From an uncultured Flavobacteriaceae bacterium (GTDB taxonomy: Bacteria; Bacteroidota; Bacteroidia; Flavobacteriales; Flavobacteriaceae): DNA of 64,000 nt. The position numbers and the translations under genes are program-made. The notes under the pieces were generated by a model. The model had not been told where the DNA came from. It did not search any database and worked only from the letters and a program-made list of their open reading frames with translations. Where the stretch lies: the NCBI GenBank assembly GCA_947495135.1, contig CANLXN010000009.1, positions 116,165-180,164 on the forward strand, read 5' to 3'. Numbering within the stretch: the stretch's first letter is position 1; each line of letters starts with the position of its first letter. Shown piece after piece: positions 11,742 through 32,000 of the stretch.

Positions 11742-11813
11742 AAGAATTGCCCTTCGAAGACGGGCGTATTTTTGAATTAGTATCGTATTTTTGCATTGTA
11801 AAACTACAAATTT

Positions 11814-12005
11814 ATGTTTTCTACCGGACAATTAATTTTTGCTATTCTTTTTGCCGTTGCATTTGTGATTCTCATCGTGATTAGCTATCGAAAAGACGTT
11901 AAAAGAGACCGCAAATACGCCAAAGGAAGCATCTGGATTTTGGTAGGCTTCTTAGTCTTTGTTGGTTTATTGATGGCCGCGAAAGTGTATTTGAAAGGGC
12001 AATAA
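11814..12005 (+). CDS. Small two-TM membrane protein
   Basis: 63 aa; two hydrophobic helices separated by a basic loop; divergent from the MazG-like gene. Confidence 0.65.
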   Translation: MFSTGQLIFAILFAVAFVILIVISYRKDVKRDRKYAKGSIWILVGFLVFVGLLMAAKVYLKGQ

Positions 12006-12143
12006 TTAGTCCGTTGCCTCAAATAAATTTCAGCTTCTCACCTCCTATCTCCAAAATTCTTATTAATTTAATAGTCTAGTACCCCTAGAATCTACCCTCC
12101 CCGAACCAGTTTTCTATTCTCCCCTTTGTTGTGTTTTTTAATT

Positions 12144-12161
12144 ATACCCGGTATTGGGTAT
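12144..12161. promoter_or_regulatory. Palindromic operator ATACCC-N6-GGGTAT (NarL-like 7-2-7), copy 1
   Basis: ATACCCGGTATTGGGTAT; GAGTTTTG (-7-like) starts 40 bp downstream at 12184; same layout at 16274. Confidence 0.65.
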
Positions 12162-12306
12162 GGTTTGATATATCCTAATTGTTGAGTTTTGGAGTATTAA
12201 AAAGTAATTAAAATGACCGAGCCGAAAAAATTTAGTCCGACAATTAGGCTATTCCTTGCATCTTTTTGTCCTTTACATATATAACTTTTCATTTTAAAAA
12301 TTTATT

Positions 12307-13365
12307 ATGAGAATAAAACTACCCTCATTAAGCCGTCTTTTAAATTTCTACATAAATAGAGATAACGCAGATATAGCTTTAGCCCAATATGACGACAAGT
12401 ACATAAGAGAAAATGGTATAGAATATATTGCAATTATTAGGACCAATAATCCAATATTAAAATATAAGCTAGAATTTGGTGTTTCAGATGACAACATAAC
12501 GATCCAAAAATGGAACACCAAGGCCAAAGCCAATATATTAACGATTCCAAGTAATTTGCCTGTTCATACTGAAGCAATTCCATTTAAAGCCCAAACCAAA
12601 TTCATAAAGTCCAAAATTAAACGTGTCGGCAAAATAGCCTTCATTGAACACCTGAAAGATGAAAAATTTGAACAAAGAAGTATCTCAAATGAGAACTCAC
12701 ATTTAGGAGGAACGTTGGGAGGAACTTTTCACCTTAGCAAATTTAGTGGCACATACGGCATTACCAATTGGCATGTCTTATATAAATCTCGCGCAGAATA
12801 TGGTGATGACTTCACGTTCGATTTAAATCTTCCTATATATTACCCTCGCTTACAAAATTATGATTCAAAAACCGAGAAGAAACACGCGGAAATGGGAAAA
12901 ACAATATGGGCATCAGACAAGAACCTTGATGCATGTATTTTTAAAATTACTAAAGAAAATCACAGAAAAGTCATTCAAAAAAGTGTTCAGCACATCACTT
13001 CGATTATACCTCCAAAATTTAATTTAATAGTTAGTTTTTCCGGATTATCGACTCGATATAAATGTGGAGAGGTGAGAAGCGATAATACCACCGTTAAAGT
13101 TGATAGTAATAAGGGTATATATCGTAATCAAATTCAATTAAAAAGAATTTCGCAAAAAGGGGATAGTGGGTCTATTTTATTCCATGGAAAACACGCCGTT
13201 GGACTACTTTTTTCTAGTAGTAAGGAAGGAAAAAATCAATTTTCATATGCAAATAGGCTCGATAAAATATTTGATAATCCAAGAATAGTCACTTTGGATA
13301 TTCTAAATAATAACAGAGTAAATACTCTTCACAAACTAATTTTAAAACCAGACAGGTATGTGTAA
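12307..13365 (+). CDS. Trypsin-like (S1/Nal1-like) serine protease, no signal peptide
   Basis: GTLGGTF, ITNWH (His), LDACIF (Asp), GDSGSILF (Ser), VGLLF; AT-rich gene. Confidence 0.75.
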   Translation: MRIKLPSLSRLLNFYINRDNADIALAQYDDKYIRENGIEYIAIIRTNNPILKYKLEFGVSDDNITIQKWNTKAKANILTIPSNLPVHTEAIPFKAQTKFIKSKIKRVGKIAFIEHLKDEKFEQRSISNENSHLGGTLGGTFHLSKFSGTYGITNWHVLYKSRAEYGDDFTFDLNLPIYYPRLQNYDSKTEKKHAEMGKTIWASDKNLDACIFKITKENHRKVIQKSVQHITSIIPPKFNLIVSFSGLSTRYKCGEVRSDNTTVKVDSNKGIYRNQIQLKRISQKGDSGSILFHGKHAVGLLFSSSKEGKNQFSYANRLDKIFDNPRIVTLDILNNNRVNTLHKLILKPDRYV

Positions 13366-13795
13366 ATTTAATGAAGTACATTATTTAAACGTCGAAGATA
13401 GTGACGACTATCAATTACTGCATGAAGATGCAGAATATGGGGACACCAAAATTTATGGCAAATTCGAATGGCAAGGTTCTGCAATAATCAAAATTAACTT
13501 TATACTCATAAATAAGGCCAATTCGATTAGACATTTATATAAAATGCATAGGGCAAATTTTTGTCAGTCTAAAAATAGAATTGAATTACATTTATCCAGT
13601 GATAAGAGCTTTACAAGCTCAATCGATCAATTAGACACTATCATTTCTAATAATTTAACTCTCGCTAAACAAGATAGAATAGATTTCTGTCTAAGAATTA
13701 CATCCGACAGCCAGACCAGTAATACTAGGCTTTGCGAAAATGACACTTCCGGAGACCCAGATGACAAGGATGGTTCAATTCTAATCGGAACCTAA
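13358..13795 (+). CDS. Hypothetical 145-aa protein with acidic/Gly C-terminal tail
   Basis: Start overlaps the protease stop by 8 bp; ends 3 bp before the kinase; tail NDTSGDPDDKDGSILIGT. Confidence 0.7.
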   Translation: MCKFNEVHYLNVEDSDDYQLLHEDAEYGDTKIYGKFEWQGSAIIKINFILINKANSIRHLYKMHRANFCQSKNRIELHLSSDKSFTSSIDQLDTIISNNLTLAKQDRIDFCLRITSDSQTSNTRLCENDTSGDPDDKDGSILIGT

Positions 13796-13798
13796 AAT

Positions 13799-15622
13799 AT
13801 GTCATTAAAAAGGAATTATCAGAGATTCATAATACCAGTAGTTTTTTTAGCTACTGGTTTTTGCTATTCTCAAAAAGATCTTAAACAATACGCATATGTC
13901 TTATCTCAAACGGAACAACTATTAAAACACAAAGAAATAGACAGTGCTCTACTACAACTAGAATCATTAGACACTCTTAAACTAAACGCCAGTTATTTAG
14001 CTCGATTCCATGAATTATATGGCTCTATTCTTCTTTCTGTTAACCTGCATGGAGAATCGCATTCATCATTCCATCGAGCTAAATTCCTGTATGATTCATT
14101 AGGTTTCGCTTATAAAGAACAAAATATAAACTTGAAAATAATTCAGGTTGATAATCGAACATCTCCTTATAAGGAAGGGATGGAGGAAACTAAAAGAGAA
14201 ATTTCAGAATTAATTTTAGAATATTGTATTTATGCTAAGACGTGTATGGGAAACAATGAAATTTCAGAATGTTATAGCTTGAACGCTGCACGGTATTTAC
14301 ATTTAGAAAAAAGCTTCGAATCCAATTTAAATTTTGATAAGGCAATTTCTTATGCTGAAAAAGCAAATGACTCTTCACTCATAATTAAAAATTCATTCAA
14401 CAAGGCCATTGTTTACAAAGTGCTCCTTAAAGATTTGGATAGCGCGATGTATTATTATAAAAAGATTGAACCGATTATATTAAAATCGGGTAATAAAAAT
14501 AACATTGCTGCCCTCTATAATAATCAAGCAGAGATTTATCAAGAGTACCGTCAGTATCAACTAGCCAAACATCTTTATTTAAAGGCATTGAATCTAAACT
14601 TAAAAGAAGATGGATTACACACCCAATGGAAGATTATAAGAAATCTAACTAAAAACTATGAACTGGCAGGGAATTATGAGAAAGCATTTAAAACTGAAAA
14701 AAGGAAAGATATTATTGGAGATTCTTTGGATAAACAAACTCAATACCTATCTATATTGAAGAACAGAATTAAATACCAAAGTGTTGAAAAAGAAAAACGT
14801 CTTCTAATTTCAAAGCAAAAAGAAAAAGAAACGCAAGATATTGCCGTTGGCCTTGGCGGAAGCCTCGTTGCTGTTTTTTTGATTGGTTTTTTACTATTCA
14901 AAAACACCAAGAAAAAACAGCGCATTGCGGAACAACAACGCGAACTGGAAATTCAAAAGACCGAGAAAATATTAAAAGAACAAGAGCTTACTACCATTGA
15001 TGCTATGATTGCCGGACAGGAAAAAGAGCGACAACGATTGGCAAGTGATTTGCACGACAGTGTAGGAGCTACGCTAGCGGCCGCAAAACTGCAGTTTGAT
15101 CATCTTTCTAAGAACAAATCCAAACTCGGGGAACTAGATGAACTTTTTAATAAGACGGAAAAATTATTAGATGACGCTTACACAGAAGTACGGTCTATGG
15201 CGCATGCCAAGAACAGTGGCGTTTTGGCAAAGGATGGTTTGCTGCCTGCGGTTCTAAAACTGGCGAAGAACGCTTCGGGGACTAATCAATTACAGATCGA
15301 TATACAGGATTTTGGACTGGAGGAACGATTGGAAAATTCTCTGGAGATTACTGTTTTTAGGATTATCCAAGAATTAGTAACCAACATCATTAAACATGCA
15401 AAAGCGAGTGAAGCCAATATCTCCATCACTCAGCATGAGGATTCTCTCAATATTATGGTGGAGGATAATGGGATCGGATTTAAACCGTTGGAAACCCCTA
15501 AAACAAAAGACGGTATGGGACTGGACAGCATCGAAAGACGCGTGGAGCATTTGGAAGGTAGTATGGACGTAGATTCTTCCGAAGAAAAAGGAACCACCAT
15601 TGTAATAGACATTCCCTTATGA
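13799..15622 (+). CDS. TPR-ectodomain sensor histidine kinase (HisKA_3/NarX-type)
   Basis: N-terminal signal; TPR helices (AALYNNQAEIY); TM IAVGLGGSLVAVFLIGFLLF; H-box ERQRLASDLHDSVG; ELVTNIIKHA, EDNGIGF, GMGL boxes. Confidence 0.92.
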   Translation: MSLKRNYQRFIIPVVFLATGFCYSQKDLKQYAYVLSQTEQLLKHKEIDSALLQLESLDTLKLNASYLARFHELYGSILLSVNLHGESHSSFHRAKFLYDSLGFAYKEQNINLKIIQVDNRTSPYKEGMEETKREISELILEYCIYAKTCMGNNEISECYSLNAARYLHLEKSFESNLNFDKAISYAEKANDSSLIIKNSFNKAIVYKVLLKDLDSAMYYYKKIEPIILKSGNKNNIAALYNNQAEIYQEYRQYQLAKHLYLKALNLNLKEDGLHTQWKIIRNLTKNYELAGNYEKAFKTEKRKDIIGDSLDKQTQYLSILKNRIKYQSVEKEKRLLISKQKEKETQDIAVGLGGSLVAVFLIGFLLFKNTKKKQRIAEQQRELEIQKTEKILKEQELTTIDAMIAGQEKERQRLASDLHDSVGATLAAAKLQFDHLSKNKSKLGELDELFNKTEKLLDDAYTEVRSMAHAKNSGVLAKDGLLPAVLKLAKNASGTNQLQIDIQDFGLEERLENSLEITVFRIIQELVTNIIKHAKASEANISITQHEDSLNIMVEDNGIGFKPLETPKTKDGMGLDSIERRVEHLEGSMDVDSSEEKGTTIVIDIPL

Positions 15623-16245
15623 TCACAGTAGCAATTGCAGAAGACCACCAAAGCCTAGTAGACGGTATTAACTTACTGCTCGAATACGAGGAAGACATTT
15701 CTATTGTAGGCAGTGCTAACGACGGGGAAGCGCTCTTGGCTATTGTACGTTTAAAGCAGCCCAAAGTGGTGCTAACCGACATAAAAATGCCCAAAATCGA
15801 CGGTATTTCGGCCACAAGGCTTATTAAAAAGGAGTTTCCGCATATCAAAGTGATTGCTTTTAGCATGTTCGACCAAGAAGAGGCAGTGCGTCAAATTACG
15901 GAAGCTGGTGCTTCTGGATATTTATTGAAAAATTCTCCCTTGGATCAGGTGCTCATTGCCATTAGGGAAGTTGCGGCCGGACATTCATTTTACGACAAAG
16001 CCATTGACACATCGTTCCTTTCCGAAGAAACAAAAACAGCACCTCGTAAATTGATCCTCTCTAAAAGCGAGCGTGAAATCCTAAAACTCATCGGACAAGG
16101 AAAAACCACCAGCGAAATTGCCAATCTCCGATTTACCGCAGTTTCTACCGTAGAAAAGCACCGCAAGAATATGATTCGGAAATTGGGCTTATCTGGTAAG
16201 GGAGAACTGCTGCGATATGCCTTGGAGAAGAAGTATAATTTTTAG
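15619..16245 (+). CDS. NarL/FixJ-family response regulator (REC + LuxR HTH)
   Basis: IAEDH, LTDIKMP, GASGYLLK, LSKSEREILKLIGQG...TVEKHRKN; ATGA overlap with the kinase. Confidence 0.93.
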   Translation: MITVAIAEDHQSLVDGINLLLEYEEDISIVGSANDGEALLAIVRLKQPKVVLTDIKMPKIDGISATRLIKKEFPHIKVIAFSMFDQEEAVRQITEAGASGYLLKNSPLDQVLIAIREVAAGHSFYDKAIDTSFLSEETKTAPRKLILSKSEREILKLIGQGKTTSEIANLRFTAVSTVEKHRKNMIRKLGLSGKGELLRYALEKKYNF

Positions 16246-16273
16246 ATTAAACCATTCATAATAAAACACTTAA

Positions 16274-16291
16274 ATACCCTTGACTGGGTAT
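16274..16291. promoter_or_regulatory. Palindromic operator ATACCC-N6-GGGTAT, copy 2 (may also act as terminator)
   Basis: ATACCCTTGACTGGGTAT followed by a T-run; canonical TATTTTTG (-7) starts 40 bp downstream at 16314. Confidence 0.65.
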
Positions 16292-16345
16292 TTTTTTGTG
16301 GCTTACCTACTGGTATTTTTGAGATATAATTTTAAATAAAATCTC

Positions 16346-17155
16346 ATGAAAAAATTACTACTATTATTAATAGTTCCGATTAACTTACTTGCACAAAATG
16401 ACAATTATATCACCATTGGAAACTATTTAGAATTTACCCAAAATGTTGAAATAATTGAGCTAGAGCCATCTGCTAGCTACGAAACGTTAAAATCTGTAAG
16501 TGAACCTACGACTATGGAAGCAGTAACGTTTACTATAGGAAAAAACGAAATTATTCAAGCCGAGGTTGGATGGATATTTAAAATTCTAAAAAACGACAAA
16601 AACATCTATGTTATCAAATTAATTGGCCAACCAGACTATGCTAACAAATTTTATGGCATCTCGAAATTTCAACTCATTAATAGTGCAAAACTATACGACG
16701 GCAAAAATGCCAAAGACGGATTTGTTGCTAGTGCGATAACCATTCCTGTAAAAGTAAGGTTTGGTAATGAAAAATCTGAACCATTAGCTGAAGGAGAAAG
16801 AGAAAGGTTTTTTGATTTTGAAGGGAACTATAACATAGGAATTACTGGAGGATACAGAATTCGAATCAACCAAAACGGAAGCAACTATCTTACTGGATTA
16901 GTAGGATTTAATATTGGCAGCACCAAAGTAACCCCTGAAACAGCGGATGTTGAAACTGATTCCAATAGAAGTATTCTAACTCCTTTCACTGGCCTAATGG
17001 TAGAGTTTAGTGAGTTTCAAATAGGTGCATTCGTAGGATGGGATCATGTTTCTGGTCAATTAAGTAAAAGCTGGGTATATCAAGGAAAACCATGGTTGGG
17101 TCTAGGAATTGGATACAATATCTTTGCTACAGAAGATTCTACTCCATCAAATTAG
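16346..17155 (+). CDS. Secreted/outer-membrane hypothetical protein
   Basis: Signal peptide ending LLA|Q; amphipathic strand-like C-terminus (WLGLGIGYNIF); AT-rich. Confidence 0.75.
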   Translation: MKKLLLLLIVPINLLAQNDNYITIGNYLEFTQNVEIIELEPSASYETLKSVSEPTTMEAVTFTIGKNEIIQAEVGWIFKILKNDKNIYVIKLIGQPDYANKFYGISKFQLINSAKLYDGKNAKDGFVASAITIPVKVRFGNEKSEPLAEGERERFFDFEGNYNIGITGGYRIRINQNGSNYLTGLVGFNIGSTKVTPETADVETDSNRSILTPFTGLMVEFSEFQIGAFVGWDHVSGQLSKSWVYQGKPWLGLGIGYNIFATEDSTPSN

Positions 17156-17202
17156 AGGATACAGGCAATTAACGATCATAAAGAACAATTTACACCTAAC
17201 TA

Positions 17203-17240
17203 AAAAACCTCCCAAGAGAAAATATCTCAAGGGAGGTTTT
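17203..17240. terminator. Bidirectional intrinsic terminator
   Basis: AAAACCTCCC...GGGAGGTTTT between convergent genes. Confidence 0.75.
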
Positions 17241-17262
17241 GATTTTATAAGTACTGCTATTA

Positions 17263-19305
17263 CTAGTTCTCTAAAGGCAAGAAGTTGTATTTAGCACTGT
17301 AATCTAACATCTGAGCTTCGAAGCTTTCTGGTTGCTCTACGCTGAAACTTTCGATCTCACCGGCGTCGTTCATTTTTGGAACAATTACTGGGTTTACGAA
17401 TCCGCTATAAGGTGGAGATTTAAACTTACTGTTTCTCTCCAATACCTCAGCGTGTAAGGTTTGGTCTACTTTTACACCGTAGTCTTCAACCAACGCTTTA
17501 GCCGCTTCATAATCTCCTTCCGAAGTAATTCGCTGTGTTTCTTTCAATAACATTCCGAAGATCTCACGAAGTTTTGTGTAATCCTTGATATCGTAATAGG
17601 TTTTTCCATCACGAGTTACCTTTTCAATTACGTTATCTGCAGCTCCTTTTTCAAAGGCCCATGCACTAACCCATTGTCTATTCACCATATGTGCTTCTTC
17701 TACATCGTCTCCTAATTCCAAACGTACTAATTGTCCAATTAGACCATTTCGGATGTATCCATCGTAAGCAGCTTTTCCAGTTTCTTCCCAGTTTTCAACT
17801 AAGTTAAGCTCTTGAAGTTTTGGATCCATTAGGTAGTACAGTCCGAATAAATCTGCCCGACCTTCTTCAATCGTCGACTTATAGCGTTTTAGCGTTTCCT
17901 TTGGCGTTCCCACACCTTGATTGATCTGTCCAGAGGCATGTCCAACAACTTCGTGTAAAGCGGTGTGTAATTTATCTCCTAACTGACCGTATTTTTCTTC
18001 CAATCTAATCTCTTCTTCATCATGTGCGAATTCTTGTAACCTTCCACTTCCACCGGCATTGTTGTAGGCGTTAATAATATTCCCAAGAGAAACCGACTTA
18101 CTCCCATGTGCCTGGCGAATCCAGTTGTTATTTGGCAGATTCACTCCAATTGGTGTACTTGGTGAAGCATCTCCCGCTTCTCCAGCAACAATTACTGTTT
18201 TGTAAGAAACTCCTTTTACTTCTTTCTTTTTGTGTTCTGGCATCAAAGGTGAATTGTCTTCAAACCATTGTGCTTCCTTAGATAACACAGCCATTTTCTT
18301 AGACATGTCAAAATCCTTGATTTGCACTATAGTCTCATAAGAACCTTTATATCCTTTGGGATCGTTGTATACTTCTATAAATCCATTGATCCAGTCAATG
18401 TTTCCTTCGGTAGAATTAACCCATGCAACTGCATAATCGTCCCAAGTATCTAAGCTTCCCGTTTTATAGTACTCGATTAATAATCCAATGGCTTTTGCTT
18501 GGTTTTCACTTTCGGCAACTCCCTTGGCTTTTTCTAGCCATCCAATGATTTCGTCAATTGCTGGTCCAAATAAACCACCACTTTTATAGACCTTCTCAAC
18601 TAATTTTCCATTTTCCTTTACCAAACGAGTGTTTAAACCCACTTCAATTGGCTCATCTGCATTTACCTTAATAGCACCATAATACTTCTCCACATCTGCA
18701 GTAGTAACATCTGGCCCATAAAAATTAATGGCACTTTCCAAAACAATATCCGCGTCTTTACTTAAATTAACTTTTTTGGCGTCTTTGTCGTTAAACATAA
18801 CATCAACTGCGGCAGCGGCAAGAGTGGTATTGGTTTCAGCTAAAAGTGTACTAAAATACTCTTTACTGAAATCGGGCTTCATTTTCGCATTGCTATAATG
18901 GTGGTGAATCCCGTTTGCGAACCAAACTCGTTTTAAATAAGTTTCGAAATGATTCCAGTCGGCGCTAGCTTTATCACCGCTATAGTTCTTGTAGATATTC
19001 TCCAAGGCGGCTCTAATTTTTAAATTATGTCGGTAATTTTGATCCCACATAATATCTCTTCCCGATAGACCAGCCTGGGTAAGATAATACACCAGTTTTT
19101 GCTCTTTCAATGTCAAATCTTCAAACCCTGGAATTTGATAGCGCAAAACCTTGATGTCTGCGAACTCACCTACTTTGTAATCGAATTTAGTTTCCTGCTC
19201 TACTTTAGACGAATCTACCGCGACATCGGTATTTTTTTTATCCTCTCCACAAGAAAAAAACAACATGCTCCCAAGAGCCATTGTCAACAATATATTATTC
19301 TTCAT
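17263..19305 (-). CDS. Dipeptidyl-peptidase III (peptidase M49), lipoprotein
   Basis: Hexapeptide zinc motif HEVVGH, EEGRADL, GVNLPN, EAHM; lipobox FFSC. Confidence 0.88.
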   Translation of the reverse strand: MKNNILLTMALGSMLFFSCGEDKKNTDVAVDSSKVEQETKFDYKVGEFADIKVLRYQIPGFEDLTLKEQKLVYYLTQAGLSGRDIMWDQNYRHNLKIRAALENIYKNYSGDKASADWNHFETYLKRVWFANGIHHHYSNAKMKPDFSKEYFSTLLAETNTTLAAAAVDVMFNDKDAKKVNLSKDADIVLESAINFYGPDVTTADVEKYYGAIKVNADEPIEVGLNTRLVKENGKLVEKVYKSGGLFGPAIDEIIGWLEKAKGVAESENQAKAIGLLIEYYKTGSLDTWDDYAVAWVNSTEGNIDWINGFIEVYNDPKGYKGSYETIVQIKDFDMSKKMAVLSKEAQWFEDNSPLMPEHKKKEVKGVSYKTVIVAGEAGDASPSTPIGVNLPNNNWIRQAHGSKSVSLGNIINAYNNAGGSGRLQEFAHDEEEIRLEEKYGQLGDKLHTALHEVVGHASGQINQGVGTPKETLKRYKSTIEEGRADLFGLYYLMDPKLQELNLVENWEETGKAAYDGYIRNGLIGQLVRLELGDDVEEAHMVNRQWVSAWAFEKGAADNVIEKVTRDGKTYYDIKDYTKLREIFGMLLKETQRITSEGDYEAAKALVEDYGVKVDQTLHAEVLERNSKFKSPPYSGFVNPVIVPKMNDAGEIESFSVEQPESFEAQMLDYSAKYNFLPLEN

Positions 19306-29028: not shown

Positions 29029-32000
29029 TACATATTTCTACGATACTGTCCTCCCACTTCAAATAATGAATGCGTAATCTGTCCTAAAGAACAGTATTTA
29101 CAAACTTCCATCAACGCTTCAAAAATGTTCTCATTATTGATGGACCTGTGCTGTAAATCTTTAAGCAGCGCCGCGGCCTTTTCATCATTTACGGTATGAA
29201 GACTATTAACCACCTCTATTTGATATTGCTTCTCTTCTTCGGTAGCACGGATTACCTCCGCTGGCAGCACCGTTGGAGAACCGGTACTACTAAGAAATGT
29301 ATTTACACCAATAATTGGGAACTCTCCCGTATGTTTCAAAGTCTCATAATAAAGACTCTCCTCCTGAATCTTACTGCGCTGATACATCGTTTCCATAGCT
29401 CCCAAAACACCTCCACGTTCGGTTATTCTGTCGAACTCCTCTAAAACAGCATTCTCTACAAGATCTGTTAGTTCTTCTATAATAAATGAACCTTGTATAG
29501 GGTTTTCATTCTTAGCGAGACCTAACTCTTTATTGATGATGAGCTGAATTGCCATTGCTCTTCGCACACTTTCTTCGGTTGGAGTAGTAATGGCCTCATC
29601 GTAGGCGTTGGTGTGAAGTGAATTACAGTTATCATAAATTGCATAAAGCGCCTGCAAGGTTGTTCTGATGTCGTTAAAATCGATTTCCTGAGCATGCAGC
29701 GATCTTCCTGAGGTTTGAATATGATACTTCAACATTTGTGCTCTCGGGTTCGCTCCGTATTTATGTTTGAGCGCCTTCGCCCAAATCTTACGAGCAACAC
29801 GGCCTATCACCGAATACTCGGGATCTACTCCATTGCTAAAGAAAAAGGAAAGGTTAGGTCCAAACTTATTGATGTCCATCCCACGAGACAAATAGTATTC
29901 TACGTAAGTGAAACCATTGGATAATGTAAATGCTAATTGCGTAATTGGATTCGCTCCAGCTTCTGCAATGTGATATCCACTAATAGAGACTGAGTAGAAA
30001 TTACGCACCTGCTTTTCAATAAAATACTCTTGTACGTCTCCCATCAATCGCAATGCGAATTCGGTAGAAAAAATACAGGTATTCTGCGCTTGGTCTTCCT
30101 TTAAAATATCTGCCTGTACTGTACCACGTACCTGCATCAAGGTATCCGCTTTTATTTTGTAATAAACCTCCTTAGGAAGAACCTGATCTCCGGTTACTCC
30201 TAACAACATTAATCCTAATCCGTCATTCCCCTCTGGTAAGTCGCCTTGATATTGCGGGCGGGTTTGCCCCCTATAAATTTCTGTAATTTTCTTTTCTACA
30301 TCCTTCTCCAGCTTGTTTTCTTTGATGTACTTCTCGCAGTTCTGATCGATGGCAGCATTCATAAAAAATCCTAACAACATAGGAGCAGGACCATTGATGG
30401 TCATACTAACAGAAGTCATTGGATCACTTAAATCGAACCCAGAATACAATTTCTTAGCATCGTCTAAGCAACAGATCGAAACACCTGCATTACCAATCTT
30501 ACCATAGATATCTGGACGAATACCGGGATCATTTCCATAGAGTGTAACACTGTCGAAAGCAGTAGACAAACGCTTCGCAGGTAACCCATGACTTACGTAG
30601 TGAAAACGACGATTGGTTCTTTCTGGACCTCCTTCACCTGCAAACATTCGGGCGGGGTCTTCTCCAGTTCTTTTAAACGGATATAATCCGGAGGTATATG
30701 GAAACTCGCCAGGAACATTTTCCTGTAGGCACCATTTTAAAACATCTCCCCATGCTTGGTATTTTGGCAATGCCACTTTCGGTATCTGTGAATGTGACAG
30801 TGATTCTGTATGTGTATCTATCTTTATTTCTTTATCCCGTACTTTAAAGGAATAGACTGGATCTTTATACTTCTTCACTTTCTCGTCCCAACCAGTAATT
30901 ACTTCCCAGTTGTATGGATCAAGGTCCATTTTCACACGATCAAATTCGGCTATTAGAAGTTTAATTAGATCCTTATTTTCTTCCGAAATATTCATGGAAT
31001 CACCATCTAGACCTGCCTTGTCTAAATTAGGTACACTACCCGAAATAGATTCTACGGTTTTGAAAATTCCATATAGTTTTTGAGCAACTTCCACCTGTTG
31101 GTCTGCAGTCTTATCGTAGGCTCTATTGTTTTCTGAAATTTCCGAAAGATAACGCGTGCGAGCTGGAGGGATCACAAAGATCTTCTCGCTCATCTCGTCT
31201 GTAATTTCAAATGTACTGTTTAGGTTGGCTCCAGCTTTAGACACTAATTCGTCCATGATAGCCTTGTAAAGCTTATTCATTCCTGGGTCGTTAAACTGAG
31301 AAGCAATGGTTCCATGAACAGGCAATTGATCCTGAGGCGTATCCCAAAGTTGGTGATTACGCATGTATTGTTTTTTCACATCTCGCAAGGCATCTAGAGA
31401 TCCTCTTTTATCGAACTTATTGATCGCGACTAAATCGGCAAAATCGAGCATGTCAATTTTTTCCAGCTGGGTCGCAGCGCCAAATTCTGGGGTCATTACG
31501 TAAAGCGAAATATCACTGTGTTCTAAAATTTCGGTATCGCTTTGCCCTATTCCTGAAGTTTCTAAAATAATAAGGTCGTACTCTGCCGCCTTCAATACCT
31601 GAATTGCTTCCGCAACATATTTTGACAATGCTAAATTACTTTGCCTAGTTGCAAGGCTTCTCATGTAAACTCTAGGCGAATTAATAGCGTTCATACGGAT
31701 GCGATCTCCAAGCAGTGCTCCACCTGTTTTCCTTTTGGAAGGATCTACAGAAATGAGTCCAATGGTTTTTTCGGGGAAATCAATTAAGAATCGGCGCACC
31801 AATTCGTCTACCAATGATGATTTTCCAGACCCACCCGTTCCAGTAATTCCGAGTACTGGTGTACTAATATTTTCGTTTTTCTTATGAATTTGAGTCAACG
31901 CATCTTTGGCAATTTCTGGAAAATTTTCAGCAGAAGAGATCACCCGAGCAATTGCTCCGTCTACCTTGTCGGCCAATTGGTTCACTTCTCCATTCAATTT

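Follow-up and report, generated by a model that had tools for sequence, protein, structure and literature searches.

The DNA analysed here (hereafter the window) is a 64,000 nt stretch from an uncultured Flavobacteriaceae bacterium (assembly GCA_947495135.1, contig CANLXN010000009.1, positions 116,165 to 180,164 of the forward strand), in which a four-gene operon encoding a two-component system is preceded and followed by copies of the palindrome ATACCC-N6-GGGTAT. The first copy, ATACCCGGTATTGGGTAT (ATACCC-GGTATT-GGGTAT; 12144-12161, with the core TACCC-N6-GGGTA at 12145-12160), is a 7-2-7 inverted repeat located on the + strand 5′ of the operon, whilst the second, ATACCCTTGACTGGGTAT (16274-16291, with the core TACCC-TTGACT-GGGTA at 16275-16290), lies on the same strand inside a hairpin, the whole element spanning 16272-16298. 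An initial annotation of this DNA, made from the sequence alone, had pointed out both palindromes, and a scan of both strands of the window confirmed that these are its only two matches; dinucleotide-preserving shuffles of the window contained a mean of 0.01 matches, and two were reached in 0 of 100 shuffles. The same annotation had described a -7-type octamer exactly 40 bp on from each copy, and the + strand octamers GAGTTTTG (12184-12191, five of the six consensus positions of TAnnTTTG) and TATTTTTG (16314-16321, all six) do indeed both begin 40 bp past the first A of ATACCC. We propose, with a probability of about 0.72, that the two palindromes are operators (termed operators 1 and 2 hereafter, as predicted features) of the NarL/LuxR-class regulator encoded at 15619-16245.

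The four + strand genes between the palindromes overlap or nearly abut (13358/13365, 13795/13799 and 15619/15622), hence their initial assignment to a single operon is reasonable. The first two encode a serine protease-like protein and a small protein. Gene 3 (13799-15622) encodes a sensor histidine kinase with a signal peptide, a periplasmic TPR region (approximately residues 25-345), a transmembrane (TM) segment (346-370) and HisKA_3 (PF07730) and HATPase_c (PF02518) domains, and its end overlaps the start of the regulator gene by 4 nt. The latter, gene 4 (15619-16245), encodes a response regulator with REC (PF00072, 7.1e-25) and GerE/LuxR helix-turn-helix (HTH; PF00196, 8.2e-12) domains, both detected above curated cut-offs. 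Beyond the second palindrome, the + strand gene at 16346-17155 encodes a beta-rich protein of 269 aa that has a signal peptide and matches no Pfam family; its structural model (pLDDT 68.5) gave no significant fold match and a weak resemblance to OmpA/OmpX-type barrels. This gene had been named as the output of the circuit, a role that is borne out at the sequence level: homologues identified independently in Aquimarina and a marine metagenome occupy the same position behind the regulator gene, and in two Aquimarina genomes the homologue is preceded by the same operator-promoter module.

A position weight matrix derived from other loci only (described below) scored the site at 12144 at 44.7 bits and that at 16274 at 43.6 bits; the rest of the window never exceeded 8 bits and shuffled windows reached a maximum of 3.0. 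Other candidate sites in the window were examined and rejected. Two TACCC half-sites at 12081-12085 and 12095-12099 (64 and 50 bp 5′ of operator 1) were considered as auxiliary sites, but are neither conserved nor enriched (23 versus 15.6 expected) and are probably due to chance, whilst a TACCT-N6-AGGTA palindrome at 30129 lies within a 1149-aa open reading frame (ORF), has no -7 box and was likewise taken as a chance occurrence. No match to an Rfam family was identified in 11800-17400, and no RNA sequencing run containing the region was found.

Related loci were fetched by kinase homology alone and one genome per bacterial species was scanned, giving 79 loci (1.48 Mb), all of which were from Flavobacteriaceae or close relatives, including Winogradskyella, Psychroserpens, Dokdonia, Gilvibacter, Maribacter and Lutibacter, at identities of 35-62%. 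The core TACCC-N6-GGGTA occurred 62 times in these loci, where we estimate that base composition predicts one or two. With at most one core mismatch, 147 sites were retrieved, 115 of which had a -7 box matching at five or more of six positions at exactly the spacing of the two window sites; amongst random position pairs, the box is matched this well in only 2.3%. Every one of the 115 sites is oriented with the kinase-regulator genes. They were found 5′ of the kinase operon (57 sites), within 150 nt past the regulator stop codon (32 sites) or further downstream before same-strand genes (26 sites), and none (0/115) was found in the flanking DNA of the 79 loci.

An alignment that was independent of the motif was also made, using whole intergenic regions picked by synteny (54 situated 5′ of the operon and 57 that follow the regulator gene), and conservation of 90% or more was confined to the two arms of the palindrome and the -7 TTTG. 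The motif also accompanies the kinase-regulator pair into loci without flanking synteny (e.g. L038, L045, L063, L073 and L078). Absence of the motif from orthologous promoters had initially been put forward as grounds for abandoning the operator proposal; instead, the motif is present in these promoters and is the sole conserved feature of the synteny-picked intergenic regions.

The logo of the 115 sites, in which position 1 is the T of TACCC and positions 8 and 9 flank the symmetry centre, is A(-2) w A(0) T A C C C a n T | A n T G G G T A T(17) K T T T T. The arms TACCC(a)(n) and (n)(T)GGGTA and the central TA yield inverted heptamers with a 2-bp spacer (7-2-7 geometry), of which both window copies are exact matches. 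Columns that were not used in site selection are also retained, namely T17 (115/115), A(-2) (109), A9 (101) and T11 (102). In comparison with the NarL consensus TACYYMT, positions 1-5 of the heptamer match, with C or T at the fifth, whilst 54% of sites have A at position 6 and position 7 is unconserved. The original description of this geometry as that of NarL-family inverted heptamers thus holds for the paired heptamers, the 2-bp spacer and the fit of positions 1-5 to TACYY, though not to the extent of making the regulator a NarL orthologue.

The -7 box occupies logo positions 40-47, with a purine peak at position 52. As the -7 box of Flavobacterium psychrophilum sigma-A promoters sits at -12 to -5 (PMC9723704), the transcription start is predicted at logo position 52, which would centre the palindrome at -43.5 in a register that is fixed at all 115 sites. 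In the window, the predicted starts are both A residues on the + strand, at 12196 for the operon and 16326 for the output gene. Predicted 5′ untranslated regions (5′UTRs) in the family show a sharp peak at 19-30 nt with a median of 23-24 nt, and the 20-nt 5′UTR of the output gene fits this distribution.

The regulator belongs to the REC + GerE, NarL/FixJ (LuxR-type HTH) class and the adjoining kinase to the HisKA_3 class; the closest solved structures to the regulator are VraR/LiaR (E 2.6e-29), NarL and DesR. Its predicted phospho-acceptor is D54 and its recognition helix reads T177-V-E-K-H-R-K-N184. Across 78 kinase-adjacent regulators, which have an overall identity of approximately 63%, residues T177, H181, R182, K183 and N184 are invariant. 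The autoregulation of the operon that had been predicted from the window gains comparative support from this invariant helix, together with the 57 sites 5′ of kinase operons and the conserved arms.

In the proposed circuit, the TPR-sensor kinase would phosphorylate the regulator, as predicted at D54, and a regulator dimer would bind the inverted heptamers TACCCnn-TA-nnGGGTA. The bound dimer would be positioned approximately 43.5 bp 5′ of the start, abutting the would-be -33 element, and would aid sigma-A RNA polymerase at a promoter that has a -7 box only. Operator 1 would confer positive autoregulation on the four-gene operon, whilst operator 2 would drive the secreted beta-rich output gene. 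As part of the operon RNA, operator 2 would form a hairpin followed by a U-run, the probable end of operon transcripts, and because this hairpin probably terminates them, transcription of the output gene would rely on the regulator-activated promoter in front of it.

Several observations weigh against this proposal, and are set out here with the alternatives on which they bear. The first -7 box, GAGTTTTG, is non-canonical, having G for T at base 1, although the identical octamer is retained at the equivalent site in two Aquimarina genomes (L080 and L083). Sites 5′ of the operon mostly have a weakened -7 box that deviates in its first base (CAnnTTTG, or the octamer shared by the window and Aquimarina), whilst those of downstream sites are canonical; suboptimal boxes at autoregulatory sites are as expected of activator-dependent promoters. 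No -33 TTTG was found at the consensus distance, logo positions 16-20 reading A-T-K-T-T where the right arm of the palindrome sits. In Bacteroidetes the -33 TTTG is dispensable, yet required for full activity (PMC2483708), which raises the alternative that the regulator binds these sites as a repressor, such that occupation of -51 to -36 would block the -33 region or upstream RNA polymerase contacts and the autoregulation would be negative. The site does abut or overlap the place of a -33 element, and NarL-family proteins are repressors at some promoters (PMC7419079). However, the regulator would find no canonical -33 TTTG to occlude at the consensus distance, the -7 boxes at autoregulatory sites are suboptimal in the manner of activator-dependent promoters, and activators typically keep the kind of strict helical register with the -7 box that the 115 sites show. 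The predicted centre at -43.5 also equals the position of an activating NarL site, the single 7-2-7 site that lies immediately 5′ of the -35 element of Escherichia coli yeaR, and NarL activates ogt from a site at -44.5 (PMC10853779; PMC7419079). We regard repression as unlikely.

The position of the sites constitutes a further difficulty, in that every site has a co-directional gene before it and T-rich sequence after it, and hence position cannot separate an operator from a terminator role. According to a second alternative, the palindromes are intrinsic terminators only, which happen to lie before promoters, and no protein reads the DNA. Operator 2 forms a hairpin (AAATACCC...GGGTATTT) with an 8-bp stem, a 6-nt loop and a 7-T run, 30 nt past the regulator stop codon. 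The stem-loop at 16272-16293 with its T-run scores as a terminator; 16272-16298 was called in a terminator scan, with an RNA fold of -13 kcal/mol (z -3.96). Flanking A and T runs lengthen the stem, and in the family T at logo position 18 is commoner in downstream than in upstream sites, giving a longer U-run. Logo pair 2/15 covaries symmetrically ((A,T) 132 and (C,G) 30, versus single changes of 14 and 6). This symmetric substitution defines a second class of palindrome, AAAATCCCC-N6-GGGGATTTTTT (TCCCC-N6-GGGGA), which was found in 48 copies, only downstream of the regulator gene within islands (the islands comprising the kinase-regulator genes with their accessory and output genes), and none of which is in the window. 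A -7 box is present at the same spacing in 26 of the 48 copies; some copies have no such box, which fits selection for a hairpin. Covariation at two other logo pairs was uninformative: that at -1/18, (T,G) versus (A,T), fits RNA wobble pairing and DNA pyrimidine preference alike, and that at 5/12 was not significant (10 observed, approximately 7 expected).

Against a role as terminators alone, the ten arm positions are near-invariant across genera whilst the adjacent spacer is unconserved, other symmetric arm variants were seen only 0-3 times, and the loop is retained (T8, A9 and T11) where terminators would not need it. The distance to the -7 box does not vary by a single base pair. Operator 1 (12144-12161) has a poor U-tract, its tail being GGTTTGAT, and was not called as a terminator. 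Real hairpins of the same loci have unrelated stems, and no TACCC-N6-GGGTA terminators were found in the locus flanks outside the islands. Since arm sequence and loop are retained, the -7 register is exact, the first copy is uncalled and genuine hairpins have unrelated stems, a terminator-only function is very unlikely for these palindromes. That the 16274 copy might act only as a terminator was foreseen in the initial annotation; the copy is indeed a credible terminator, but the conservation of arms, loop and -7 register speaks against that being its only role. It is probably dual, an operator as DNA and an intrinsic terminator as RNA.

The remaining points concern which protein reads the operator. 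The regulator is not a NarL orthologue: it scored 103.9 bits against the NCBIfam NarL equivalog model, for which the cut-off is 250, and its kinase carries a TPR sensor. The base-contacting residues of NarL are K188, V189 and K192 (PMC10853779), of which K188 and V189 are replaced here, the helix being E-K-H-R-K in the window and D/E-T/K-H-R-K in the family. A metagenome scan seeded by the motif alone returned at least 120 stretches, many of them on short contigs, with at least 67 unique palindrome-promoter modules. Amongst the 67 unique modules listed, only 19 had a NarL-type two-component gene in the fetched stretch, and this was true of just two of the six listed modules with flanks of 4 kb or more on each side. 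Some 57 of the listed stretches represent a single locus of a gut Bacteroidales species (L085 and approximately 56 more, from human gut metagenomes, GC content ~0.50), in which the palindrome and a -7 box in register lie 5′ of a gene for a 504-aa PepSY_TM membrane protein; no NarL-type two-component gene was found within up to 9 kb of it. A purely local regulon, as had been considered, is weakened by these modules that have ample flanks and no two-component gene. The regulon need not be local, as the metagenomic modules precede unlinked genes: either it would include such genes, or several regulators with the same helix would share the operator. Genes that follow the metagenomic modules mostly have, by our reading, signal-peptide-like N-termini, and Pfam searches identified type IX secretion tails and outer-membrane barrels amongst them.

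These results could suggest that the operator is read mainly by another protein, such as a paralogous LuxR-type regulator, a GerE-only protein or a more global factor. Modules that stand before unlinked genes, including that of a gut Bacteroidales species in which the fetched stretch contains no two-component gene, would be accounted for in this way, and some islands do encode GerE-only proteins with the same helix (TVSTHRKNI). Nevertheless, no other DNA-binding protein was found to be encoded in the island of the window, and the motif stays with the kinase-regulator pair in loci that are not syntenic. The helix signature also co-occurs with the motif in distant paralogues: amongst the matches listed, all nearby NarL-type proteins carry T-V-x-T-H-R-K-N, including regulators that are only about 30% identical. 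For instance, in a metagenomic locus of GC content 0.53 (L106), the palindrome, with -7 boxes on both strands, lies 5′ of the gene for a kinase of another sensor type (Reg_prop / Y_Y_Y + HisKA_3), and the partner regulator, 32% identical to that of the window, retains T-V-E-T-H-R-K-N. The unlinked sites could equally well be further members of the regulon, and we consider it improbable that another protein is the principal reader.

The locus is syntenic across the Flavobacteriaceae. The conserved chromosomal frame comprises, upstream, genes for a class IV aminotransferase (median identity to the window protein 65%), a PRA-PH-like protein (77%) and a small membrane protein (53%) and, downstream, an M49 peptidase (71%) and an SRPBCC protein (39%). 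Conservation inside the island is seen in the C-terminal half of the kinase (59%) and in the regulator (63%), whilst the N-terminal sensor half of the kinase is 26% identical or undetectable in relatives, and the upstream accessory genes and downstream output genes vary from species to species. The sensor domain, accessory genes and output genes are hence hypervariable, in a comparison between species rather than strains. The small membrane protein of the frame (61-63 aa, two TM helices) is encoded directly 5′ of operator 1 in the window (11814-12005) and is present in all syntenic loci; its gene seems to belong to the chromosomal frame and not to the two-component system, being absent where the system sits elsewhere. 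No terminator was found between this gene and operator 1 in the terminator scan.

Inside a conserved chromosomal frame, variable genes or groups of genes are each delimited by one and the same short palindrome, as would also be seen if the palindromes were recombination sites, akin to attC-type cassette boundaries, that underlie the turnover of these genes. No conserved gene of recombinase size was apparent in the locus maps, the left boundary between variable and conserved sequence falls inside the kinase gene rather than at a palindrome, and a recombination site would need neither a fixed -7 register nor a start codon approximately 24 nt beyond the predicted transcription start. It is thus hardly credible that recombination explains the palindromes, and the operator proposal is retained in what follows.

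The accessory genes of the window are a case in point of this variability. Gene 1 (12307-13365, + strand) encodes a 352 aa protein with a chymotrypsin fold, no signal peptide and no Pfam match. It is a member of a divergent family of chymotrypsin-fold serine proteases, in which H156 and S287 (the latter in GDSGS) are invariant in an 18-member alignment, and the family profile matches SplE, glutamyl endopeptidase and streptogrisin amongst solved structures (E 6.5e-7). The first large gene of the operon encodes a protein of this fold in the window and in 18 other loci; elsewhere an S8 subtilase, a papain/C39-like protease or a caspase C14 is found (examples being L055:7338-8597, L030:7171-8364 and L141:3250-4050), and many loci encode a lipoprotein and no protease.

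Gene 2 (13358-13795, + strand) encodes a 145 aa protein without a signal peptide or a Pfam match, which belongs to a very small family and has the conserved tail PDDKDGSILIGT. The protein encoded next to the kinase is hypervariable across the loci, save for its extreme C-terminus: the tail P-[DE]-x-x-x-G-[SND]-I-[LI]-[VI]-G, followed by 1-3 further residues, was present in 29 of 65 kinase-proximal proteins versus none of approximately 1480 other ORFs of the loci. In the window this tail is GDPDDKDGSILIGT, encoded at 13751-13792. It occurs both in lipoprotein-type proteins and in proteins without a signal peptide, and in the subtilase loci the kinase-proximal protein has a different, Cys-containing C-terminal tail. 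The gene 2 family has 16 relatives amongst 1.84 billion representatives, and all 13 of the sequences that were read retain DKDG[SA]I[LI][IV]G at or near the C-terminus. Word-based homologue searches with the protease-like and small proteins returned only the window's own sequences; relatives were obtained by BLASTP within the loci, by a profile search of solved structures and by exhaustive HMMER searches.

A 23-codon ORF (MTEPKKFSPTIRLFLASFCPLHI*; 12213-12284, + strand) begins 17 nt past the predicted operon start, at the usual position of a first gene. It bears a weak resemblance to the N-terminus of a three-TM protein of approximately 90-130 aa that is encoded by the first gene of 15 related operons, and on this slight resemblance is probably a truncated remnant of that small first gene, which would explain the unusually long gap of 111 nt before 12307. 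Output genes in other species encode type IX secretion cargo, DUF5723 proteins, VWA and PD40 lipoproteins and small GerE-only proteins. A PADLOC search gave only marginal matches and no support for a known defence system.

Hairpins of another kind were observed inside the kinase genes. In the window, an intragenic terminator-like hairpin with a 10-bp stem followed by TTTTG (13834-13858, + strand, +36 to +60 of the kinase ORF; -13.6 kcal/mol) is present, and hairpins of 7-12 bp with a T tail occur in the first 110 nt of 10 of 47 full-length kinase genes, mostly at +31 to +63 and with unrelated stems, compared with 1.5 +/- 1.2 in codon-order shuffles. Such a hairpin could be an attenuator that lowers the expression of kinase and regulator relative to the accessory genes. 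With regard to the TCCCC-N6-GGGGA palindromes, which were seen in loci L003, L014, L018-L020, L022, L025, L033, L040, L041, L081 and others, many are directly 5′ of genes for GerE-only proteins of approximately 126-141 aa, with the ATG at the predicted start, so these transcripts are possibly leaderless. The recognition helix of these GerE-only proteins, TVSTHRKNI, matches that of the regulator.

It is conceivable, albeit doubtful, that the island is a proteolysis- or peptide-based signalling module of a kind undescribed in Bacteroidetes, a functional analogue of agr, ComQXPA and RNPP systems. The co-encoded protease would then act on the kinase-proximal protein, the product or tail of which would be sensed by the hypervariable periplasmic TPR domain, and the regulator would close a positive feedback loop via operator 1 and switch on secreted or surface proteins via operator 2. 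The architecture of the island is what may suggest such a function.

A NarL-type activator site, a positive autoregulatory loop and an adjacent output promoter together make up a familiar type of circuit. Neither this operator nor this island was found described in the literature searched, coverage of which was incomplete such that prior work is possible, and within that literature a circuit of this kind was likewise not encountered for this bacterial group. Few transcription-factor operators have been defined in the Flavobacteriaceae, and the architecture of activator-dependent promoters of the -33/-7 sigma-A type is poorly understood. The present analysis offers a precise candidate operator, TACCCnn-TA-nnGGGTA at a predicted -43.5, a candidate regulator with the diagnostic helix TVxTHRKN, and more than 100 natural promoter variants. 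In these abundant marine bacteria the sensor, accessory and output genes of the island turn over rapidly whilst regulator and operator stay fixed, and with outputs that are largely secreted, surface or type IX secretion cargo, the island may be an entry point to surface sensing. By overlapping a predicted operator with a probable terminator, the region behind the regulator gene offers a compact arrangement that could serve genetic tools for the phylum.

Comparison with known systems places the module close to several of them without equating it with any. As with intrinsic terminators, the second palindrome forms a stem-loop with a 7-T run 30 nt past a stop codon, but the stem sequence itself is retained here across genera and positions, and the first copy is without a good U-tract. 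The promoters resemble Bacteroidetes sigma-A promoters in having a -7 box at -12 to -5 of the predicted start and 5′UTRs of approximately 20-25 nt, and differ from them in having the palindrome in place of a -33 TTTG at the consensus distance. VraR and LiaR, which regulate responses to cell-envelope stress, share with the regulator their domain order and a similar helix scaffold, T-V-K-T-H-x-x-N, at low identity. The operons of VraR and LiaR are autoregulated, as is predicted here, and have accessory genes 5′ of the kinase gene; their kinases are intramembrane-sensing and without TPR domains, and their operators differ in sequence from the present site. The order of a putative processing enzyme, a small precursor-like protein, a kinase with hypervariable input and a conserved regulator is shared with agr and ComQXPA, as are operon autoregulation and an adjacent output promoter, both of which are predicted here; ComP/ComA is likewise a HisKA_3/NarL-class pair. 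In contrast to those systems, the protease-like and small proteins of the window both lack a signal peptide, the conserved tail of the small protein is common across genera rather than strain-specific, and many related loci have a lipoprotein instead and no protease. The operators of NarL are the nearest likeness to the sites themselves, in their 7-2-7 geometry, the fit of TACCC to TACYY, the single site, here at a predicted -43.5, that abuts the -35 or -33 position, the REC + GerE regulator and its HisKA_3 partner. What sets the present module apart from NarL is a recognition helix of T-V-[DE]-[TK]-H-R-K-N in place of K188-V189-H-V-K192, a periplasmic TPR kinase sensor in place of a NarX-type nitrate sensor, and a setting at Bacteroidetes sigma-A promoters.

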